64,000 bases of DNA. Origin: an uncultured Ignavibacteriales bacterium (GTDB lineage: Bacteria > Zixibacteria > MSB-5A5 > GN15 > FEB-12). Every line of letters begins with the position of its first letter. Positions within the stretch are counted from its first letter, which is position 1. Under the pieces are notes generated by a model that was not told where the DNA came from, made no database searches, and was given only the letters and a program-made list of their open reading frames with translations. Made by a program: the position numbers and the translations under genes. The DNA is taken from NCBI GenBank assembly GCA_964544635.1, contig CAZJCK010000004.1, positions 1,790-65,789 on the forward strand, given 5' to 3'. Shown in pieces: positions 4,787 to 11,966 of the stretch.

Positions 4787-6232
4787 TCAGAAGATCTCGG
4801 CTGAGAACTTATACACCTCGGCGGCGGGATCCTTATAACTGTTGCGCGGCAGGCCGGCTTTCAGGCAGGTCTGTTCGAGGAACTGGCTGACCTCCCATTT
4901 GTGGTCGGCGGCAACCTGTGGCAACAAAAGACCGGAGTTCATGTCCAGCTTGATCATCAGGCCGTCGCGACCGATCTGGATCTTCTTGAAATCATGTACC
5001 CGTTCCAGCCGGGACAATACCGAGATTTCATAGTCGATCGTCTCGGCCTCCGCCGGCGTGAGTGGATCAAAGCGGGGATCGTCGAATGCCGCCGCCACCG
5101 CCATTTCGGCGACCGCTTCGTAGAGCGGACGGCGCGCCCGGATCTGGCCGATACAACCGCGCAGCGCCCCGGCCATGGTCAGGGTGACAAACACGCCACG
5201 GCGGACATCGAGCGATTCACGGTACGGCGGCTCATACTTGTTGTTTTCGATATGGGCCATGACCGCATCGCGAGCCACCTGCTTGATGTATTCGCGATCT
5301 TCGTCAGTCAGTATGAGTTCGTCGCCACGCGCCGGGCGGGCGCCGATATCGGCCTTCGATACTTTCGAAATCTTGCTCTTTTCACCCTCGGTTACCACCG
5401 CCGACAGGTAACCGACAACTTCCTCGAAGTCACCGGTTGTCTCGGCCGACGTCGTATACTCAAGCACTTCAGCCGCGCCGCCGCCAAGACGTCGCGCCGC
5501 CGCCATCACCGCCGCCATCGGGCCGGCGCCGCAGGCTTCGCCCTTGCCGCTGTCGACGATGTCCATCAGCGCCGTCGGATCGAACTGCGAGATCGCTTCG
5601 CGGATGTTTGAGTCGAGCCGCTCCGCCTGCTTCTGCCTGTGGAAATGCGACAGATCACTCGAGGCCACCAGCAGCGTGTTGGTGCCGCCCAGGGCACTGG
5701 CCAGCACCTCGCCCAGGGCACTGACGGAATCCGATTCCTGGTCCCCCATCACGATCGCCACCAGCTTGAAGTTCCCAAGTACCGTCTGTAAAAAGGGAAG
5801 CTGCACCTCGAGGGCGTGCTCGCCACGGGTACCGCCGGTAGCGTGCCCCATCTTCGAGGTATAGACAAGGGGATGGATGTTGGCGATTTTGTCCGACAGT
5901 TCGCGATCGATCTCGACCACACCAATCGGTGTCTGGTAACCGTGCCCGGAAAAGACTGACGATCCCTGGAAGAAGACGGTGTGCGACGGCGACACGACAA
6001 CGACCGTGTCATATTGTTCTCCCTGCAGCAGCTTGAATGCCTTGGCAGCGGTCTTGCCGGAATACGCATAGCCGGCGTGGGGGGCAATCAGCGCCATCGG
6101 ACGGCCACCGATCGGCTTTATGCTCACCTCCGAAAACAGCCCGGCCACCTGCTTGATCAGGTCGACCTGTCCGGCCAGGTAAAATGATCCCGCTACGGCG
6201 GGTTTGCGAATCTCGAGTGTATCGTCAGACAT
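4787..6232 (-). CDS. fusion of Memo-family (AmmeMemoRadiSam protein B-like) and AMMECR1-family (protein A-like) domains
   Basis: 481-aa ORF. The N-terminal half has ...LIAPHAGYAYSGKTAA... and ...SSDLSHFH... (Memo-type). The C-terminal half has ...RGVFVTLTMAGALRGCIGQI... (AMMECR1-type). Confidence 0.85.
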   Translation of the reverse strand: MSDDTLEIRKPAVAGSFYLAGQVDLIKQVAGLFSEVSIKPIGGRPMALIAPHAGYAYSGKTAAKAFKLLQGEQYDTVVVVSPSHTVFFQGSSVFSGHGYQTPIGVVEIDRELSDKIANIHPLVYTSKMGHATGGTRGEHALEVQLPFLQTVLGNFKLVAIVMGDQESDSVSALGEVLASALGGTNTLLVASSDLSHFHRQKQAERLDSNIREAISQFDPTALMDIVDSGKGEACGAGPMAAVMAAARRLGGGAAEVLEYTTSAETTGDFEEVVGYLSAVVTEGEKSKISKVSKADIGARPARGDELILTDEDREYIKQVARDAVMAHIENNKYEPPYRESLDVRRGVFVTLTMAGALRGCIGQIRARRPLYEAVAEMAVAAAFDDPRFDPLTPAEAETIDYEISVLSRLERVHDFKKIQIGRDGLMIKLDMNSGLLLPQVAADHKWEVSQFLEQTCLKAGLPRNSYKDPAAEVYKFSAEIF

Positions 6233-6338
6233 CTGTGTTTTCCCTTCAGAGTTGTACTATAGGCAACATACTTCGCGGCCCCGCACACTTCAACAACTGA
6301 TCTTCCCACGAGTTTTCAGAATATCGGTCGTAAATGAA

Positions 6339-6366
6339 GAAAGGCGACCCGGCTGGGCCGCCTTTC
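6339..6366 (-). terminator. putative rho-independent terminator after the lipoprotein gene
   Basis: GAAAGGCGACCC-ggct-GGGCCGCCTTTC hairpin (one mismatch), 40 nt downstream of the stop at 6405. On the minus strand it is followed by an interrupted T-run (TTCTTCATTT). Confidence 0.4.
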
Positions 6367-6404
6367 GCTGCAACGAGGAGACGCGGAGGTGTGAAACCGA
6401 CAGG

Positions 6405-7481
6405 TTATTCGTCCGTCTGGGAGAGCAGATCGACGACGAAGACATCCTTCGGTTCGATCAGCCGCTTGATCCCCGCACCCGACTTCTGCAACACATAGCC
6501 ATCTGCCGTCCCCACCACCAGATCAGCGCCATACCGTCGAGCCACCGTCACGGTGTAGTCCTCGAATTTCTTCTGCGGCAAAAAGTCGCCATTGAAGTAG
6601 CCCACAAAGCCGCCGTCGGTGACGAGATAGACCACCCAGGAGGCGGCGTCGATCTTCCGCACCTGGTCGCCCGGCAGACCGTCGGCCGAGGTCAACTGCG
6701 TCCACGAGCCACCGTCGAAGATGAACAGCCCCTGGTCGGTACCGAGGTAGAGGTGGGCATGACGGAAGTAAAGGGCGTTGACATAGTCAAACAGCGCCGC
6801 ATCCCGTTCCAGCCAGCGCTTGTCGACGGTGCGGCCGTCCCAGCGGTACAGCCCCTGGCCGTCGGTGCCAATCCAGACACCATCGAGATCGGGCGCCAGC
6901 GCCGACACCACGACATCTTCAAGCAGCGTTTCGTTGCCGAAAGTGGAGTGGGTGAAGACACCTTCGTCGGTACCGATGATGAGGCGGTAGTTGAGGCTGG
7001 CCAGCGCCGTAACATTGCCGAGGTACTCGCCCGGAATCGGCTCGAGGATACCGTCAACAACCTTGTAGAGCTGGTCGAAGCCGACAAAAATCTCGCCGTG
7101 ATGTTCGACGATGGCGGCCGGACGGTCGGTGGTCGGGATATCGGTCCGTTCACCCGAATGCAGGTTGTAGACGACGATTCCATCATCGTAGAGTGAGTAC
7201 ACCACCGAGTCGGCGATGATCAGTTCGGCGACACCGCCTTCAGTGGTGACCGGAGTTTCTGTAGCCGAGGCATGGACCGCATTCGGCTGCTCGACTACAC
7301 TGTCGGTTGCCCGGTCAAGCCGTGCCCTGGTCAGGCTTTCGGCAAACCCGTCCGCCACCGTATCGACCATGCGATTGACCATCCCCTTCGTTTTCGGCTT
7401 TTCTTCGGAGCCGCAGCCGATCGCCATCAGGGCGCTCATCAGCCCTATAGCGAGGATCAGGATCAGTTGATTGCGTTTCAT
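6405..7481 (-). CDS. lipoprotein with beta-propeller repeats (two-component-regulator-propeller-like)
   Basis: Inside ORF 6405..7577. The start is placed at ATG 7481 (MKRNQLILILAIGLMSALMAIGCGSE, lipobox-like AIGC) with AGGAG upstream. Contains repeated ...GVWIGTDGQGLYRWDG..., ...LYLGTDQGLFIFDGGSW..., ...VYLVTDGGFVGYFNG... motifs. Confidence 0.7.
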   Translation of the reverse strand: MKRNQLILILAIGLMSALMAIGCGSEEKPKTKGMVNRMVDTVADGFAESLTRARLDRATDSVVEQPNAVHASATETPVTTEGGVAELIIADSVVYSLYDDGIVVYNLHSGERTDIPTTDRPAAIVEHHGEIFVGFDQLYKVVDGILEPIPGEYLGNVTALASLNYRLIIGTDEGVFTHSTFGNETLLEDVVVSALAPDLDGVWIGTDGQGLYRWDGRTVDKRWLERDAALFDYVNALYFRHAHLYLGTDQGLFIFDGGSWTQLTSADGLPGDQVRKIDAASWVVYLVTDGGFVGYFNGDFLPQKKFEDYTVTVARRYGADLVVGTADGYVLQKSGAGIKRLIEPKDVFVVDLLSQTDE

Positions 7482-7526
7482 CGTATTTCTCCTTTCGAGT
7501 GTGTTGTTCTGTCTGGTGGGGTATAT

Positions 7527-7542
7527 TTCAAACCCGGTGCCA
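7527..7542 (-). promoter_or_regulatory. candidate sigma-54 (-24/-12) promoter for the lipoprotein gene
   Basis: The minus strand 7542->7527 reads TGGCAC-CGGGT-TTGAA against the consensus TGGCAC-N5-TTGCW; only the -12 C is off. The predicted start is about 35 nt upstream of ATG 7481. Confidence 0.45.
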
Positions 7543-7600
7543 ACGGATAAAGCCGTTGAAATACAATAACTTAACATAAACAGGGAGGGTGCAGTCAGGG

Positions 7601-7625
7601 CTAAACCGTGTCACCGCTGACACAG
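7601..7625. promoter_or_regulatory. palindromic site 1 (CTAAACC-GTGTCA-ccgc-TGACAC-AG), candidate activator binding site
   Basis: Perfect 6-N4-6 inverted repeat GTGTCA/TGACAC at 7608-7623. Nearly the same 24-mer recurs 63 bp away. Confidence 0.5.
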
Positions 7626-7664
7626 TCTTGCAGCCGATCGGCTAACTGTTTGCAAGACATCGAA

Positions 7665-7688
7665 CTAACCGTGTCAGAACTGACACAG
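7665..7688. promoter_or_regulatory. palindromic site 2 (CTAACC-GTGTCA-gaac-TGACAC-AG), candidate activator binding site
   Basis: Perfect 6-N4-6 inverted repeat at 7671-7686 with the same flanks as site 1. Centre-to-centre spacing is 63 bp (six helical turns). Confidence 0.5.
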
Positions 7689-7771
7689 GAGATTGCCACA
7701 GGTGTGTAAAATGCTTGTTTTGCTTCAGGTTACAGCGATTGATTGTATAAGCCACACAGGAGGTGCTGACA

Positions 7772-9040
7772 GTGATCGCCCGGATAATCGTCATCATCGC
7801 AGCCATATGCACGCTCGCAGCCGCTTCGCAGGCAGAAGCGCGGTCGACCGAGGTCGACATCCTCAAGCTGCACCATGGCCGGGTCTATTTCGACGCCGGC
7901 ACAGAGCGCTATATCTTCACCGATCATTCATGGCTGATCACCTGTGGCAACGATACCATTGCCGGCGGGCGGATAGAGCGATCGTTCGACGGTTTGTCGT
8001 ATGGGCGCATCGATCCGGGTACTCAGATAGTCAGCAGTGACTCCTGCCGGGCGCAGATTGCGGTCGCCCGAATTGACACAACCTCGACGATCAGTGTCGG
8101 CCTGGTTGAATCGGCGCCGCTGACCGACTGGCTGGTGCTGTCGTGCGACCGTTCGGATACGACGGGCTCGCTCTCGATGGCATTGGATACCGCTCGTTCG
8201 GTGGCGGTGCGCAGTTTTGCCTCGCAGCTTTCGATGGTACTGGCGTTTGAGCGGGGTGAAATCGACGGAATGATCTCAAGCGAACAGCCGGCCGACCTGG
8301 CAGTGCCGTTCAATCAGCGCACAGCCGCGGCCCCCTACTACTTCGCGCTCATACCCAATCCGGCCAGCCGGGCGACGACCGACGGTTTGTTGTCAACATC
8401 GCTGTACTATCGTTTTGACGATCGACGGTTGCACGACTTGTACGACGGTTCGGCGCCGTCGCTCTACACCGGCCTGTACTGGTCACAGCGCGCTGCGATG
8501 CGGCCGTATGAATACAGCCCGTCCACCGGTCGCCATCTGCTGGCGCGAATGACATCGCCGGTGCGCCGCGTCGGACTGGCGTACGAATACGACCTGTTGC
8601 GCCCGCTGGCTGAGTATTTCGGCGACCTGTTGTCGCGCGACCGCATACGGGTCGCCCTTGACAGAGAACTGCCCGAGCCGGATCTGCGTTTTGCCGCCAT
8701 ACCACTGTACAGCGAACGACCATGGCAGAGTATGGAGGTGATCAGCCACATACTGGCACAGGATACGTCGGCCTTCTCGCGGGAAGCGGAACTGGTTCGG
8801 CAGACCTTTGAGCGGCTTGCGCTGGTGGCACGATTCTACGATCAACCGCAGGGACGAACATACCTGGCACGGGCCGAACAGGGTTTGATTGACGATCTCG
8901 GCGTGTTTCCATTGTTCCGCCCCACCCTTTTTGTGATCACGTCACCGAATATTGTGGGCGTCGTTGTTACGCCGGAGGGTCGGGTCGACCTCTGCAATGC
9001 CAACAAGCTCATAGCGCCCCAGACGGAGGCCAGGCCGTGA
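7772..9040 (+). CDS. secreted solute-binding-protein-like protein (degenerate family-5 SBP-like), probable co-sensor
   Basis: ORF 7763..9040. I prefer GTG 7772 because AGGAGG at 7758-7763 lies 8 nt upstream. It has a signal peptide (IARIIVIIAAICTLAAASQAEA). The C-terminal ...LRFAAIPLYSERPWQ... and ...GVFPLFRPTLFVITSPNIVGVVVTPEGRVDL resemble SBP family 5 by eye. The stop overlaps the kinase start. Confidence 0.6.
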   Translation: MIARIIVIIAAICTLAAASQAEARSTEVDILKLHHGRVYFDAGTERYIFTDHSWLITCGNDTIAGGRIERSFDGLSYGRIDPGTQIVSSDSCRAQIAVARIDTTSTISVGLVESAPLTDWLVLSCDRSDTTGSLSMALDTARSVAVRSFASQLSMVLAFERGEIDGMISSEQPADLAVPFNQRTAAAPYYFALIPNPASRATTDGLLSTSLYYRFDDRRLHDLYDGSAPSLYTGLYWSQRAAMRPYEYSPSTGRHLLARMTSPVRRVGLAYEYDLLRPLAEYFGDLLSRDRIRVALDRELPEPDLRFAAIPLYSERPWQSMEVISHILAQDTSAFSREAELVRQTFERLALVARFYDQPQGRTYLARAEQGLIDDLGVFPLFRPTLFVITSPNIVGVVVTPEGRVDLCNANKLIAPQTEARP

Positions 9041-10653
9041 GCTTGACCGGGCGCATTCGAATCAGCCTGCTGCTGGCGGCGCTGGCTCCGCCGCTGTTGG
9101 TGATGCTGTCGCTATATGTCTGGGTTGACTCGCGCACGCAAATGCAGCGTCGACAAGCAGCGGCCGAAGCCGTGGAGCGATTCAGCAGCTACCTGAGCCA
9201 GTGGCAACAGCAGACCGACCATGCCGCTGCCGACCTGGCGGCGTCGCGTTCGGTCAGCCGTGCCGTCGCACTCCTGCAAGCGGATCGCGTGGCACCAATC
9301 GATATTTCGATCGATCGCCTGCCGCTCGACTTCGTGGAACTGGTCGACGCCGGCAATATCTGCCGCTACAGCCTGCACCGACCCGGCCTGGTCGGCGAAC
9401 GCCTGAAACTGCCACCCACCGGTACCGCAACACAACCCGATGTCCAGTACGATCTCGACGGCGCGCATGCGGCGTATACCGTGGTCGCACCGCTGCCCGA
9501 CCAATACCGTCTCTACACCGGACGCTACTTCGACAGCAGCGACATTGCCATCGCAAAACAGCTTCTCGATGCACCGGTCATCCTGTCGTGGAGCGGTGAT
9601 GCCGACGAGCCGATCAGTCGCATGGAGCCGCGGCAGGTGTATGCGGTCGACAGTGTCATGCAGTCGCTGCTGTGGGGTGGCAGTGACGCCGGCTTCTTTC
9701 TTTCGGCAACGTTTGACGGCGCCACCGAACAGCCACAGTTTGTATCCCTCTTTTACATCACGGGTATCGTAGCGCTGGCCTCGGTAGCCTTCGCCGTTTT
9801 TCTCGGTTTCTATTTCACCGGTCGCGCCAAGCGCGAAATCGACAATCTGGTGGCCGCTACCAATCGCGTCGCCGGGGGAGACTTCGCGACTCCGGTCATG
9901 GCATATGAAGAAGGAGAATTCTCGCAACTGGCCGATTCCTTCTCCGATATGATGTACCGCCTTCGCCGCGCCCAGGACAAACTGGCGGTGTCGGAGAAGA
10001 TCGCCGCCTGGCAGGCGATGGCGCGCAAGATCGCGCACGAGATAAAGAACCCGCTGTCGCCGATTGCCATCTCGGCCGACGACCTGCGGCAATCCTACCG
10101 CGAACAGCTGCCGGACTTCGAAACGACACTCCTCGACACAACCGGTACGATTAAGAATGAGGTGCGCCGCCTGACTCGCTTGCTCGACGAATTCGTCGCC
10201 TTCGCACGCATGGCGCCGCCGGACATTCAGACGGTGCCGCCGGAGGTGCTGAGTGACAACATCCTCTCGCTCTACCGCACCGAACTCGAACAAGGCCGTC
10301 TGACCGTCAAGATGACGTCGTCGCTACCTGCCATCGAGGTCGACCCCGACAGTATCCAGCGCCTGCTGGTGAACCTGATCAAGAATGGTCTTGAAGCTTC
10401 GCCAGAGAGTCACGTAAACGTAACCATGACCGATGACAGTGGCGAGGTGGTCATCACAGTCCGCGACACCGGCCCCGGCTTTCCACCAACAGTGCTGCAG
10501 GAGCAATTCGTTCCCTACATGTCGACCAAGCCGCACGGCTCCGGTCTGGGACTTGTAATTTCGCAGCGCATTGCGCATGATCACGGTGGCAGTATTGAGC
10601 TTGGCAACCATGAACAAGGAGGCGGCATCGTCACCGTGCGACTGCCGCAATAA
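9037..10653 (+). CDS. sensor histidine kinase (periplasmic domain, HAMP, HisKA, HATPase_c)
   Basis: 538-aa ORF with two TM segments flanking a periplasmic domain of about 200 aa, an H-box HEIKNPLSPI and a G2-box GSGLGLVISQRIAHDHGGSI. The GTG start overlaps the upstream TGA (GTGA). Confidence 0.9.
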   Translation: MSLTGRIRISLLLAALAPPLLVMLSLYVWVDSRTQMQRRQAAAEAVERFSSYLSQWQQQTDHAAADLAASRSVSRAVALLQADRVAPIDISIDRLPLDFVELVDAGNICRYSLHRPGLVGERLKLPPTGTATQPDVQYDLDGAHAAYTVVAPLPDQYRLYTGRYFDSSDIAIAKQLLDAPVILSWSGDADEPISRMEPRQVYAVDSVMQSLLWGGSDAGFFLSATFDGATEQPQFVSLFYITGIVALASVAFAVFLGFYFTGRAKREIDNLVAATNRVAGGDFATPVMAYEEGEFSQLADSFSDMMYRLRRAQDKLAVSEKIAAWQAMARKIAHEIKNPLSPIAISADDLRQSYREQLPDFETTLLDTTGTIKNEVRRLTRLLDEFVAFARMAPPDIQTVPPEVLSDNILSLYRTELEQGRLTVKMTSSLPAIEVDPDSIQRLLVNLIKNGLEASPESHVNVTMTDDSGEVVITVRDTGPGFPPTVLQEQFVPYMSTKPHGSGLGLVISQRIAHDHGGSIELGNHEQGGGIVTVRLPQ

Positions 10654-10658
10654 CCACT

Positions 10659-11966
10659 ATGGCGCGCATACTTGTAGTCGATGATGAAGCCAATATCCGC
10701 AGCTCCCTGAAGTCGGCGCTCGAACGGCGCGATCACCAGGTTGTGACGGCGGAATCGTTTGCCGAGGGGGAACGGTTCGCCCGGGCGCGGTTCGACCTGA
10801 TCTTCCTCGATGTCATGCTTCCCGACGGCAACGGTGTCGATCTGCTTAAGAAGATCCTTGCCGAGAAACCGGACCAGATGATAGTGATGATCTCCGGCCA
10901 CGCCGATATCGACACGGCCGTCGACGCCATCAAGGCCGGCGCGCACGACTTTATCGAGAAGCCTTTGTCGCTGGATCGGGTCATGATCACCATCGACAAC
11001 ACCACGCGCACCCGGCAACTCCGGAACGAAAACGTGCGCTTGTCGTCGCGTGTTTACCCCGATTTCATCGGAGATCATCCCTCGATTCGCAAACTCAAGG
11101 ATGCCATCAGCCAGGCGGCGCCCAAAGCGAACCGCTTCCTGATCACCGGCGAGAACGGTACCGGGAAGGAACTGGTGGCCCATGCCATACACCGGGGATC
11201 GTTGCGGGCCGACGGTCCATTCGTATCAGTGAACTGCGCGGCGCTACCGTCGGAACTGGTCGAGTCGGAACTGTTCGGCCACGTCGCCGGCGCCTTTACC
11301 GGCGCCACCCGCGATCGCAGTGGACGGTTTGTCGAGGCCGACGGCGGCACGATTTTTCTCGACGAAATCGGCGACATGCCGCCGGCGGCGCAGGCCAAGA
11401 TTCTCCGAGTTATCGAAAACGGCGAAGTCAGCCCGGTCGGATCCGACCGTACAACTACTGTCAACTGTCTTATCGTCGCCGCCACCAACCGTCCACTCAA
11501 CGAACTGGTCGAACGCGGCACATTTCGTCAGGATCTGCTCTATCGATTGAACGTTGTCGCGCTTTCGCTGCCGCCATTGCGCGAACGCAAATCCGACCTG
11601 CCGGTGCTGGCCAGCTTCTTCCTGCGTCGCTTCGCGGCCGAGTCGGGCAGCCCGGTGGTCAGCCTCAGTAGTGACGCCGTCAAGTATCTCATGGAATACT
11701 CGTTCCCCGGGAACATACGCGAGTTGCGAAACCTGATGGAGCGCGTGAGTATCTTCTGCTCCCGGGAAGTTGCCGATCTCGATGACGTCAAGCCACACCT
11801 GTCATCCGTCGCAACGGTCAAACCAACTCACCTCAAGGATGCCGTCACCCGCTTCGAGCAGGACTATATCCGGGCCGCCATTGGCCGCAACGACGGCAAC
11901 GTCACGAAAGCCGCGCGCGAACTGGGTATCGAACGGTCGCTGTTATACAAGAAACTGAAAAAGTAG
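10659..11966 (+). CDS. sigma-54-dependent response regulator (NtrC family: REC + AAA+ + Fis-type HTH)
   Basis: 435-aa ORF with a receiver domain (ILVVDDE...DLIFLDVMLPDGNG), Walker A GENGTGKE, the GAFTGA loop, ESELFGH and a C-terminal HTH ...KAARELGIERSLLYKKLKK. Confidence 0.92.
   Translation: MARILVVDDEANIRSSLKSALERRDHQVVTAESFAEGERFARARFDLIFLDVMLPDGNGVDLLKKILAEKPDQMIVMISGHADIDTAVDAIKAGAHDFIEKPLSLDRVMITIDNTTRTRQLRNENVRLSSRVYPDFIGDHPSIRKLKDAISQAAPKANRFLITGENGTGKELVAHAIHRGSLRADGPFVSVNCAALPSELVESELFGHVAGAFTGATRDRSGRFVEADGGTIFLDEIGDMPPAAQAKILRVIENGEVSPVGSDRTTTVNCLIVAATNRPLNELVERGTFRQDLLYRLNVVALSLPPLRERKSDLPVLASFFLRRFAAESGSPVVSLSSDAVKYLMEYSFPGNIRELRNLMERVSIFCSREVADLDDVKPHLSSVATVKPTHLKDAVTRFEQDYIRAAIGRNDGNVTKAARELGIERSLLYKKLKK

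Follow-up and report, generated by a model that had tools for sequence, protein, structure and literature searches.

The 64,000-nucleotide stretch of Zixibacteria DNA analyzed here (the window) carries a gene for an envelope lipoprotein that is divergent from a three-gene operon for a two-component regulatory system. The lipoprotein gene occupies 6405–7481 on the minus strand and encodes 358 amino acids, as judged from its open reading frame, its homologs, and an AlphaFold model. Mechanical open reading frame calling extends the frame to an ATG at 7577 (6405–7577, 390 amino acids), which would swallow the promoter described below. Because orthologs share the N-terminus, the Shine-Dalgarno sequence, and the lipobox of the shorter protein, the real start is 7481 rather than 7577. 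Direct reading of the minus strand confirms the translation signals listed in the preliminary description, with AGGAG at 7493 to 7489 and ATG at 7481, and AAGGAG is conserved upstream of the lipoprotein orthologs.

The protein begins with a signal peptide whose lipobox cysteine (Cys23) is invariant in 53 homologs. Between the lipobox and a Reg_prop-like beta-propeller that spans residues ~85–345 lies a disordered linker of about 60 residues. The AlphaFold model, built on the 53 homologs, has a pLDDT of 82.5 (above 90 over residues ~85–345) and contains 28 strands, which by count would form seven propeller blades. Foldseek matches the model to propellers (E 1e-10), the best being the periplasmic sensors BT4663, BT4673, and BT3049, with BamB and WD40 proteins next. 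Judging from the predicted structure and these propeller matches, the label of "beta-propeller lipoprotein" assigned in the preliminary description is correct. Searches of Pfam and NCBIfam with this protein gave nothing above threshold (Reg_prop, E = 0.18); weak PF07494 matches occur in many members of the family, which comprises about 85 full-length proteins. Those that come from named organisms are almost all from Candidatus Zixiibacteriota.

A strong terminator-like hairpin lies at 6339–6366 on the minus strand, 39 nt past the lipoprotein stop codon; it has 12 pairs, 8 being G-C, with TTCATTT after it. The genes further downstream differ by genome and include Memo-AMMECR1, MerR, a TonB-dependent receptor, peptidases, and PAS kinases. 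Together, the terminator and the changing downstream neighbors mark the lipoprotein gene as monocistronic. The neighbor in the window, just past the terminator, is a 481-amino-acid open reading frame (4787–6232, minus strand) that fuses a Memo-like domain (PF01875) to an AMMECR1 domain (PF01871). This fusion is kept in two close relatives (82–92% identity) and not in more distant loci.

The divergent operon on the plus strand starts with a GTG at 7772, as had been proposed, and the GGAGG eight nt upstream makes this a better choice than the position returned by the ORF finder (7763). Its first gene (7772–9040) encodes a secreted 422-amino-acid protein that has no match in Pfam or NCBIfam. The predicted structure (pLDDT 86.4) has the fold of family-5 solute-binding proteins, with Foldseek matches to LpqW, NikA, and proteins of the DppA/OppA type. 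One ortholog (L100:4134-5807) is longer, with 557 amino acids, and matches PF00496. The family looks like a trimmed, divergent solute-binding protein that was recruited as a sensor partner, and the protein is probably the ligand-sensing partner of the kinase encoded next to it.

This sensor histidine kinase (9037–10653) carries HAMP, HisKA, and HATPase_c domains by domain search. The last gene (10659–11966) encodes an NtrC-family response regulator with receiver, AAA+ Sigma54_activat, and HTH_8 domains. The earlier assertion that the operon ends in a sigma-54 activator is thus borne out by matches to PF00072, PF00158 (220 bits), PF25601, and PF02954. The activator has an intact GAFTGA motif (residues 211–216 by count), and its receiver aspartate lies in the context FLDVMLPD. 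Its scores are below every named NCBIfam equivalog cut-off: NtrC (391 against a cut-off of 559 bits), AtoC (391 against 714), NtrX (371 against 600), PrsR (355 against 503), ZraR (354 against 760), and GlrR (331 against 763).

Related loci were collected for comparison, giving a set of 18 Zixibacteria loci that consists of the window and 17 orthologous loci with lipoprotein identities of 32–79%. Two of these are close relatives (79% and 74% lipoprotein identity), seven came from scanning metagenomes with the family alignment as the seed, and eight were reached via exact-protein look-ups. When genome contigs were searched with the lipoprotein sequence alone, the only matches were distant Reg_prop proteins of other phyla. 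The cassette, in which the lipoprotein gene is divergent from the genes for the solute-binding-like protein, the kinase, and the activator, is present in 13 of the 13 loci whose flank reaches the activator. In two others (L009 and L010), it is kept as far as the contigs run. Orthologs of the activator are 60–65% identical in cases where the lipoproteins share only 33–38%, and both GAFTGA and the recognition helix ERS(H/L)LYKK are kept across them. In a complete-genome record, the activator gene (L096:1300-1990) seems to be truncated (295 amino acids, without the HTH). However, a run of N marks an assembly gap at this place, and the truncation is therefore not real.

The -24/-12 element of the lipoprotein gene

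Upstream of the lipoprotein gene, in the 290-bp spacer that it shares with the divergent operon, the sigma-54-type element TGGCAC-CGGGT-TTGAA lies at 7527–7542 on the minus strand. The minus strand from 7542 to 7527 reads TGGCACCGGGTTTGAA, and the plus strand from 7527 to 7542 reads TTCAAACCCGGTGCCA. As the preliminary description had stated, the element differs from the consensus TGGCAC-N5-TTGCW at a single position, with A in place of C at -12. The GG doublet at -25/-24 is found inside TGGCAC (7542–7537, minus strand), and TTG occupies -15 to -13 with the correct spacing. From the fixed geometry of sigma-54 promoters, and with the A at 7528 taken as -12, transcription is predicted to start at 7516 on the minus strand, 12 nt downstream of -12. 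This would give a 5′ UTR of about 35 nt.

A match of this quality means little by itself, since chance alone should yield 1.9 matches to TGGCAC-N5-TTGCW with no more than one mismatch per 64-kb window. Scoring with a position weight matrix had been suggested as a check, and we used a matrix of 52 curated sigma-54 sites copied from the S2 Table of PMC12316311. The element scores 12.8 bits, the best of 127,970 positions in the window, and the orthologous element is the top-ranked site in 9 of 17 related loci. However, 12.8 bits falls below the median score of the curated sites (16.7 bits) and is attained somewhere in 16 of 20 shuffled 64-kb windows. The score alone is therefore at chance level. 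The significance of the element comes from its position and from its conservation in orthologous loci.

This conservation is extensive. The pattern YGGCAY-N5-TTGW is found in 17 of the 18 spacers, the exception being locus L019, which has CTGA in the -12 region. GGCA is invariant in all 18 loci, and the element begins 57–77 nt upstream of the lipoprotein ATG in every one of them. Information content reaches 1.5 bits per column in the GGCA of the -24 box and in the TTG of the -12 region. By comparison, it is 0.08 bits in the internal spacer of the promoter and ~0.1 bits in flanking spacer DNA, and values range from 0.08 to 0.35 bits across the internal spacer, the downstream region, and neighboring spacer DNA. 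Indeed, the sequence between the conserved elements has diverged to randomness across the 18 loci.

A pattern scan of 6100–7900 found no sigma-70-like promoter. When the window and all 100 loci collected were translated in six frames, no RpoN-box motif was present, and a literature search for Zixibacteria together with sigma-54 or rpoN found nothing.

The base at -12 deserves separate comment. The canonical C is present in none of the 18 loci, which carry TTGA (11 loci), TTGT (6 loci), or CTGA (1 locus). Among the 52 curated sites that we tabulated, 7 have A or T at this position, including those of E. coli pspA (TTGTA) and pspG and that of a Desulfomicrobium zraP (TTGAT) (S2 Table of PMC12316311). 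A or T at -12 is thus a variant that is recognized but found in a minority of curated sites.

Two findings argue against a shift of sigma-54 specificity in the whole lineage, which was considered as a reason for the missing C. Curated promoters from other phyla include some with TTGA or TTGT, and a canonical TGGCAC-N5-CTGCT element exists in one of the related loci. This element, TGGCACGCCTCCTGCT (L018:8675-8690, plus strand), scores 17.5 bits, which is the maximum for that locus. A flgF/G-type rod gene has its ATG 24 nt past the end of this element and is followed by a second rod gene. The position of the element suggests that the lineage makes use of sigma-54 promoters and that flagellar genes may be sigma-54 dependent in a Zixibacterium. 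The conserved GAFTGA motif of the activators gives further indirect support for sigma-54 in this group.

Another locus contains a second sigma-54-like site, TGGCACAGCAGTTGTT (L091:1032-1047, plus strand), which again has a base other than C at -12. It is located directly downstream of the gene for another NtrC-type activator (L091:1-796) and 87 nt upstream of a 110-amino-acid open reading frame without a Pfam match. Sites of this kind are too few to settle the question of the -12 base for the lineage as a whole. Work on core promoters has linked non-consensus bases at -12 to weaker silencing of the closed complex.

Paired palindromes and other elements of the spacer

Further upstream of the promoter are two palindromic sequences that had been proposed as enhancer sites. 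The proximal site, CTAAACC-GTGTCA-CCGC-TGACAC-AG (UAS1), spans 7601–7625, and the distal site, CTAACC-GTGTCA-GAAC-TGACAC-AG (UAS2), spans 7665–7688. Their cores, at 7608–7623 and 7671–7686, are perfect palindromes of the form GTGTCA-N4-TGACAC. The centers (7615.5 and 7678.5) are 63 bp apart, exactly as reported before, and are placed at about -99.5 and -162.5 relative to the predicted start near 7516. These two are the only copies without mismatch in the 64-kb window. With 12 specified bases, about 0.004 occurrences would be expected in 64 kb. Moreover, when the window and the orthologous loci are searched together (237 kb), all matches with at most one mismatch are found in this spacer.

Loss of the palindrome from orthologous intergenic regions had been named as an observation that would speak against its function. 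Instead, UAS1 is found in all 18 loci, although in two of them (L012 and L014) only as a half-site. The distance from its center to the T of the -24 box is 72–74 bp in 17 of the 18 loci and 76 bp in the remaining one (L018). UAS2 is present in 16 of the 18 loci, with zero to two mismatches, 63–67 bp further upstream than UAS1. It is absent from L019 and L100, which have one palindrome each. Between UAS2 and the first codon of the two-component operon, the distance is variable, ranging from 81 to 163 bp. Because this distance varies while the distance to the promoter is fixed, the geometry is anchored on the sigma-54 promoter.

The overall arrangement agrees with the enhancer geometry invoked in the preliminary description, in that the sites have dyad symmetry, lie 70 bp or more upstream of the promoter, and number two in 16 of 18 loci. 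The accompanying claim that the two sites are phased by six helical turns fares less well. It fits the 63 bp measured in the window, but it is only approximate because the inter-site spacing ranges from 63 to 67 bp across loci. This spacing is also wide for the assembly of one AAA+ ring, which counts against the main reading developed below. So do the single palindrome of L019 and L100, the missing C at -12 with the below-median matrix score, and the absence of rpoN from the window and the loci collected.

The arms of the palindromes are conserved while the 4-nt center is free to vary, and this pattern points to a protein-binding site rather than an RNA hairpin. A hairpin or a known RNA family was rejected on the grounds that there is no Rfam match, that the stem is conserved without covariation, and that the loops are variable. 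A NifA-type site (TGT-N10-ACA) was likewise set aside, given that the palindrome reads TGT-N8-ACA, or TGT-N12-ACA with flanking bases. A literature search for the GTGTCA/TGACAC motif returned unrelated eukaryotic papers only.

Between UAS1 and the promoter, at 7548–7573 on the minus strand (about -57 to -32), is the sequence TAA-N4-TTG-N5-CAA. In 10 of the 18 loci, compared with 1.7% of shuffled segments, the TAA-N4-TTG portion has one fixed position, 31 nt upstream from the first base (T) of the -24 box, and CAA usually follows after five further bases. The element sits near -50, where many sigma-54 promoters have their bending sites. Its agreement with the reverse complement of the IHF consensus (YAANNNNTTG) is limited to the core, and we regard it as a candidate only for the binding of a DNA-bending protein.

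About midway between the palindromes is an A(C/G)TTA motif, which in the window falls at ~7636–7650 (CAGTTAGC) and which reads CAACTTA in several loci. It is the reverse complement of the TAAGTTG that is present in the promoter-proximal element of some loci, and it could be a second bending site.

The operon side of the spacer contains one more conserved block (7702–7751, plus strand), upstream of the two-component operon. It consists of a GTGTGT element that resembles a half-site, an A-tract, CTTGT, 24–25 nt of free sequence, and TATAAG. The block is found in the orthologous spacers of L009, L010, L013, L015, L091, L093, L096, L097, and L099 in the form GTGT(C/G)(A/T), A-tract, CTTGT, N24-25, and (TTGATTG)TATAA(G), with the last part some 20 nt upstream of the start codon. 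The spacing differs from that of E. coli sigma-70 promoters. This block is likely to be the promoter region of the operon, and possibly it includes a third, autoregulatory site. Perhaps it displays the form that housekeeping promoters take in Zixibacteria, or its role may be in autoregulation. In the direction of the operon there is no -24/-12 element, and matrix scores reach 1.5 bits at most.

Control of the lipoprotein gene and competing explanations

The simplest explanation offered for this locus was that the neighboring two-component system controls the lipoprotein gene. The comparison of loci supports this proposal, in that all of the elements are kept together at fixed geometry in 18 loci. 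On this comparative sequence evidence, we consider it highly probable that the adjacent NtrC-type regulator activates the lipoprotein promoter through the two palindromes and sigma-54. In such a scheme, the kinase (9037–10653), probably together with the secreted solute-binding-like protein (7772–9040), would phosphorylate the regulator (10659–11966). Dimers of the regulator would then bind the palindromes near -100 and -162 and assemble an active AAA+ ring, and the TAA-N4-TTG sequence near -50 would probably aid bending of the intervening DNA. By looping of the DNA, the ring would contact sigma-54 holoenzyme held in a closed complex on TGGCAC-N5-TTGAA and open this complex with ATP. The resulting transcript would run from near 7516 to the hairpin at 6366–6339, yielding a monocistronic mRNA for the envelope beta-propeller lipoprotein.

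The palindromes might instead serve mainly, or additionally, as operators for the regulator's own operon, such that activation of the lipoprotein gene is secondary or shared, much as both divergent promoters of zraP/zraSR are served by one set of sites. The sites do sit between divergent genes, and a third GTGT(C/G)(A/T) half-site with an A-tract follows 22–31 bp past UAS2, where it abuts the CTTGT...TATAAG sequence. However, the UAS2-operon distance varies over 81–163 bp when that to the sigma-54 promoter is constant to within 1 bp, which speaks against a role centered on the operon, nor does any operon-facing element score above the 1.5 bits noted above. We therefore view this explanation as possible but somewhat unlikely. 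It is compatible with activation of the lipoprotein gene by the adjacent regulator, to which it would be an addition.

A different factor, encoded elsewhere, could also bind the palindromes, leaving the adjacent activator to act on other targets. The motif is indeed unlike any activator site that we found in the literature. Yet all loci examined combine the palindromes with the promoter and the activator gene, and conservation of the half-site goes hand in hand with that of the recognition helix in the HTH domain. No further copy of the motif was found in the 237 kb that include the surroundings of the cassette. Given these associations, the involvement of a separate factor seems very improbable. 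Least credible of all, to the point that we give it almost no weight, is the notion that the -24/-12 match is a chance resemblance and that an unrecognized housekeeping-sigma promoter drives the gene: the chance-level score for a 64-kb window, the missing C at -12, and the uncharacterized nature of Zixibacteria housekeeping promoters would allow it, but GGCA and TTG are near-invariant, with constant spacing and enhancer distance, in 18 diverged loci with randomized flanks, YGGCAY-N5-TTGW is expected only ~0.002 times per 300-bp region, and the scan of 6100–7900 offered no sigma-70-like site in its place.

The locus provides a fully specified cis-regulatory map for a Zixibacteria-wide signaling module, with the promoter, a pair of activator sites, a probable site of bending, and the terminator. 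To our knowledge, no member of this phylum has been cultured, and next to nothing about its regulation is known from experiments. Through the map, one NtrC-family regulator gains a defined DNA motif, and two unannotated proteins, one solute-binding-like and the other a propeller lipoprotein, are linked to the same pathway. Because the mechanism is textbook enhancer control by sigma-54, its value lies in annotation and in the design of heterologous tests rather than in a new principle. The new details are the A or T in place of C at -12 in all 18 loci and the fixed position of the IHF-like TAA-N4-TTG.

It is tempting to speculate further that the cassette is a phylum-specific, self-contained circuit for envelope sensing, in which the inducible propeller lipoprotein is more than an output and joins the solute-binding-like protein and the kinase as a third periplasmic component for sensing or feedback, much like ZraP or QseG. 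This idea is, in our estimation, rather doubtful. If it were true, the invariant A or T at -12 and the rigid enhancer-promoter distance of 73 bp might be tuned for feedback, for example through basal leakiness, and the three-protein periplasmic sensor architecture would be one that is not described elsewhere.

Comparison with known systems

Several features of the locus recall the zraP/zraSR system of E. coli. In both, the gene for an envelope protein is divergent from a two-component operon that ends in a sigma-54 activator, the target gene has a -24/-12 promoter, and activator sites are located in the shared spacer. ZraS and ZraR are also among the best NCBIfam matches of the kinase and the regulator in the window, albeit far under the cut-offs (117 versus 479 bits and 354 versus 760 bits, respectively). 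The two systems differ in that the target here is a beta-propeller lipoprotein rather than a ZraP/CpxP-type protein, that the operon has an extra solute-binding-like gene, and that no sigma-54 promoter was found facing the operon in the window. Furthermore, the binding motif of ZraR differs from GTGTCA-N4-TGACAC.

The enterobacterial QseE-QseG-QseF system (GlrK-YfhG-GlrR) is likewise a single module in which a kinase and a sigma-54 activator work with an envelope lipoprotein of their own. QseF/GlrR binds TGTC inverted repeats of the form TGTC-N10-GACA, a spacing unlike the TGTC-N6-GACA of the window. In the enterobacterial system, the lipoprotein gene is inside the operon, the kinase requires its product in order to be active, and the module acts on the sRNA gene glmY, whereas the lipoprotein gene of the window is the divergent sigma-54 target. 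The relationship between GlrR and the regulator of the window is one of family-level homology only (331 versus 763 bits).

For the lipoprotein itself, the structurally closest propellers are the periplasmic, glycan-sensing ones of Bacteroides hybrid sensors (BT4663, BT4673, and BT3049). Unlike propellers of the BT4663 type, that of the window belongs to a free-standing, single-propeller lipoprotein that is not fused to a kinase, and the identity is about 16%.

With regard to the enhancer, NtrC at glnAp2 and PspF at pspA also act from dyad-symmetric sites ~100–160 bp upstream of a -24/-12 promoter. The pspA promoter is similar in two additional respects: IHF binds between its enhancer and promoter, where the window has a candidate bending site, and it has T instead of C at -12 (TTGTA). 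In contrast to the sites in the NtrC and PspF systems, those in the window are ~63 bp apart rather than adjacent. The NtrC site is not GTGTCA-N4-TGACAC, and the regulator in the window is not an NtrC equivalog (391 versus 559 bits). The locus is orthologous to none of the zraP/zraSR, glnAp2, and pspA systems. Overall, zraP/zraSR is the closest known architecture, and glnAp2 and pspA have a similar enhancer layout.
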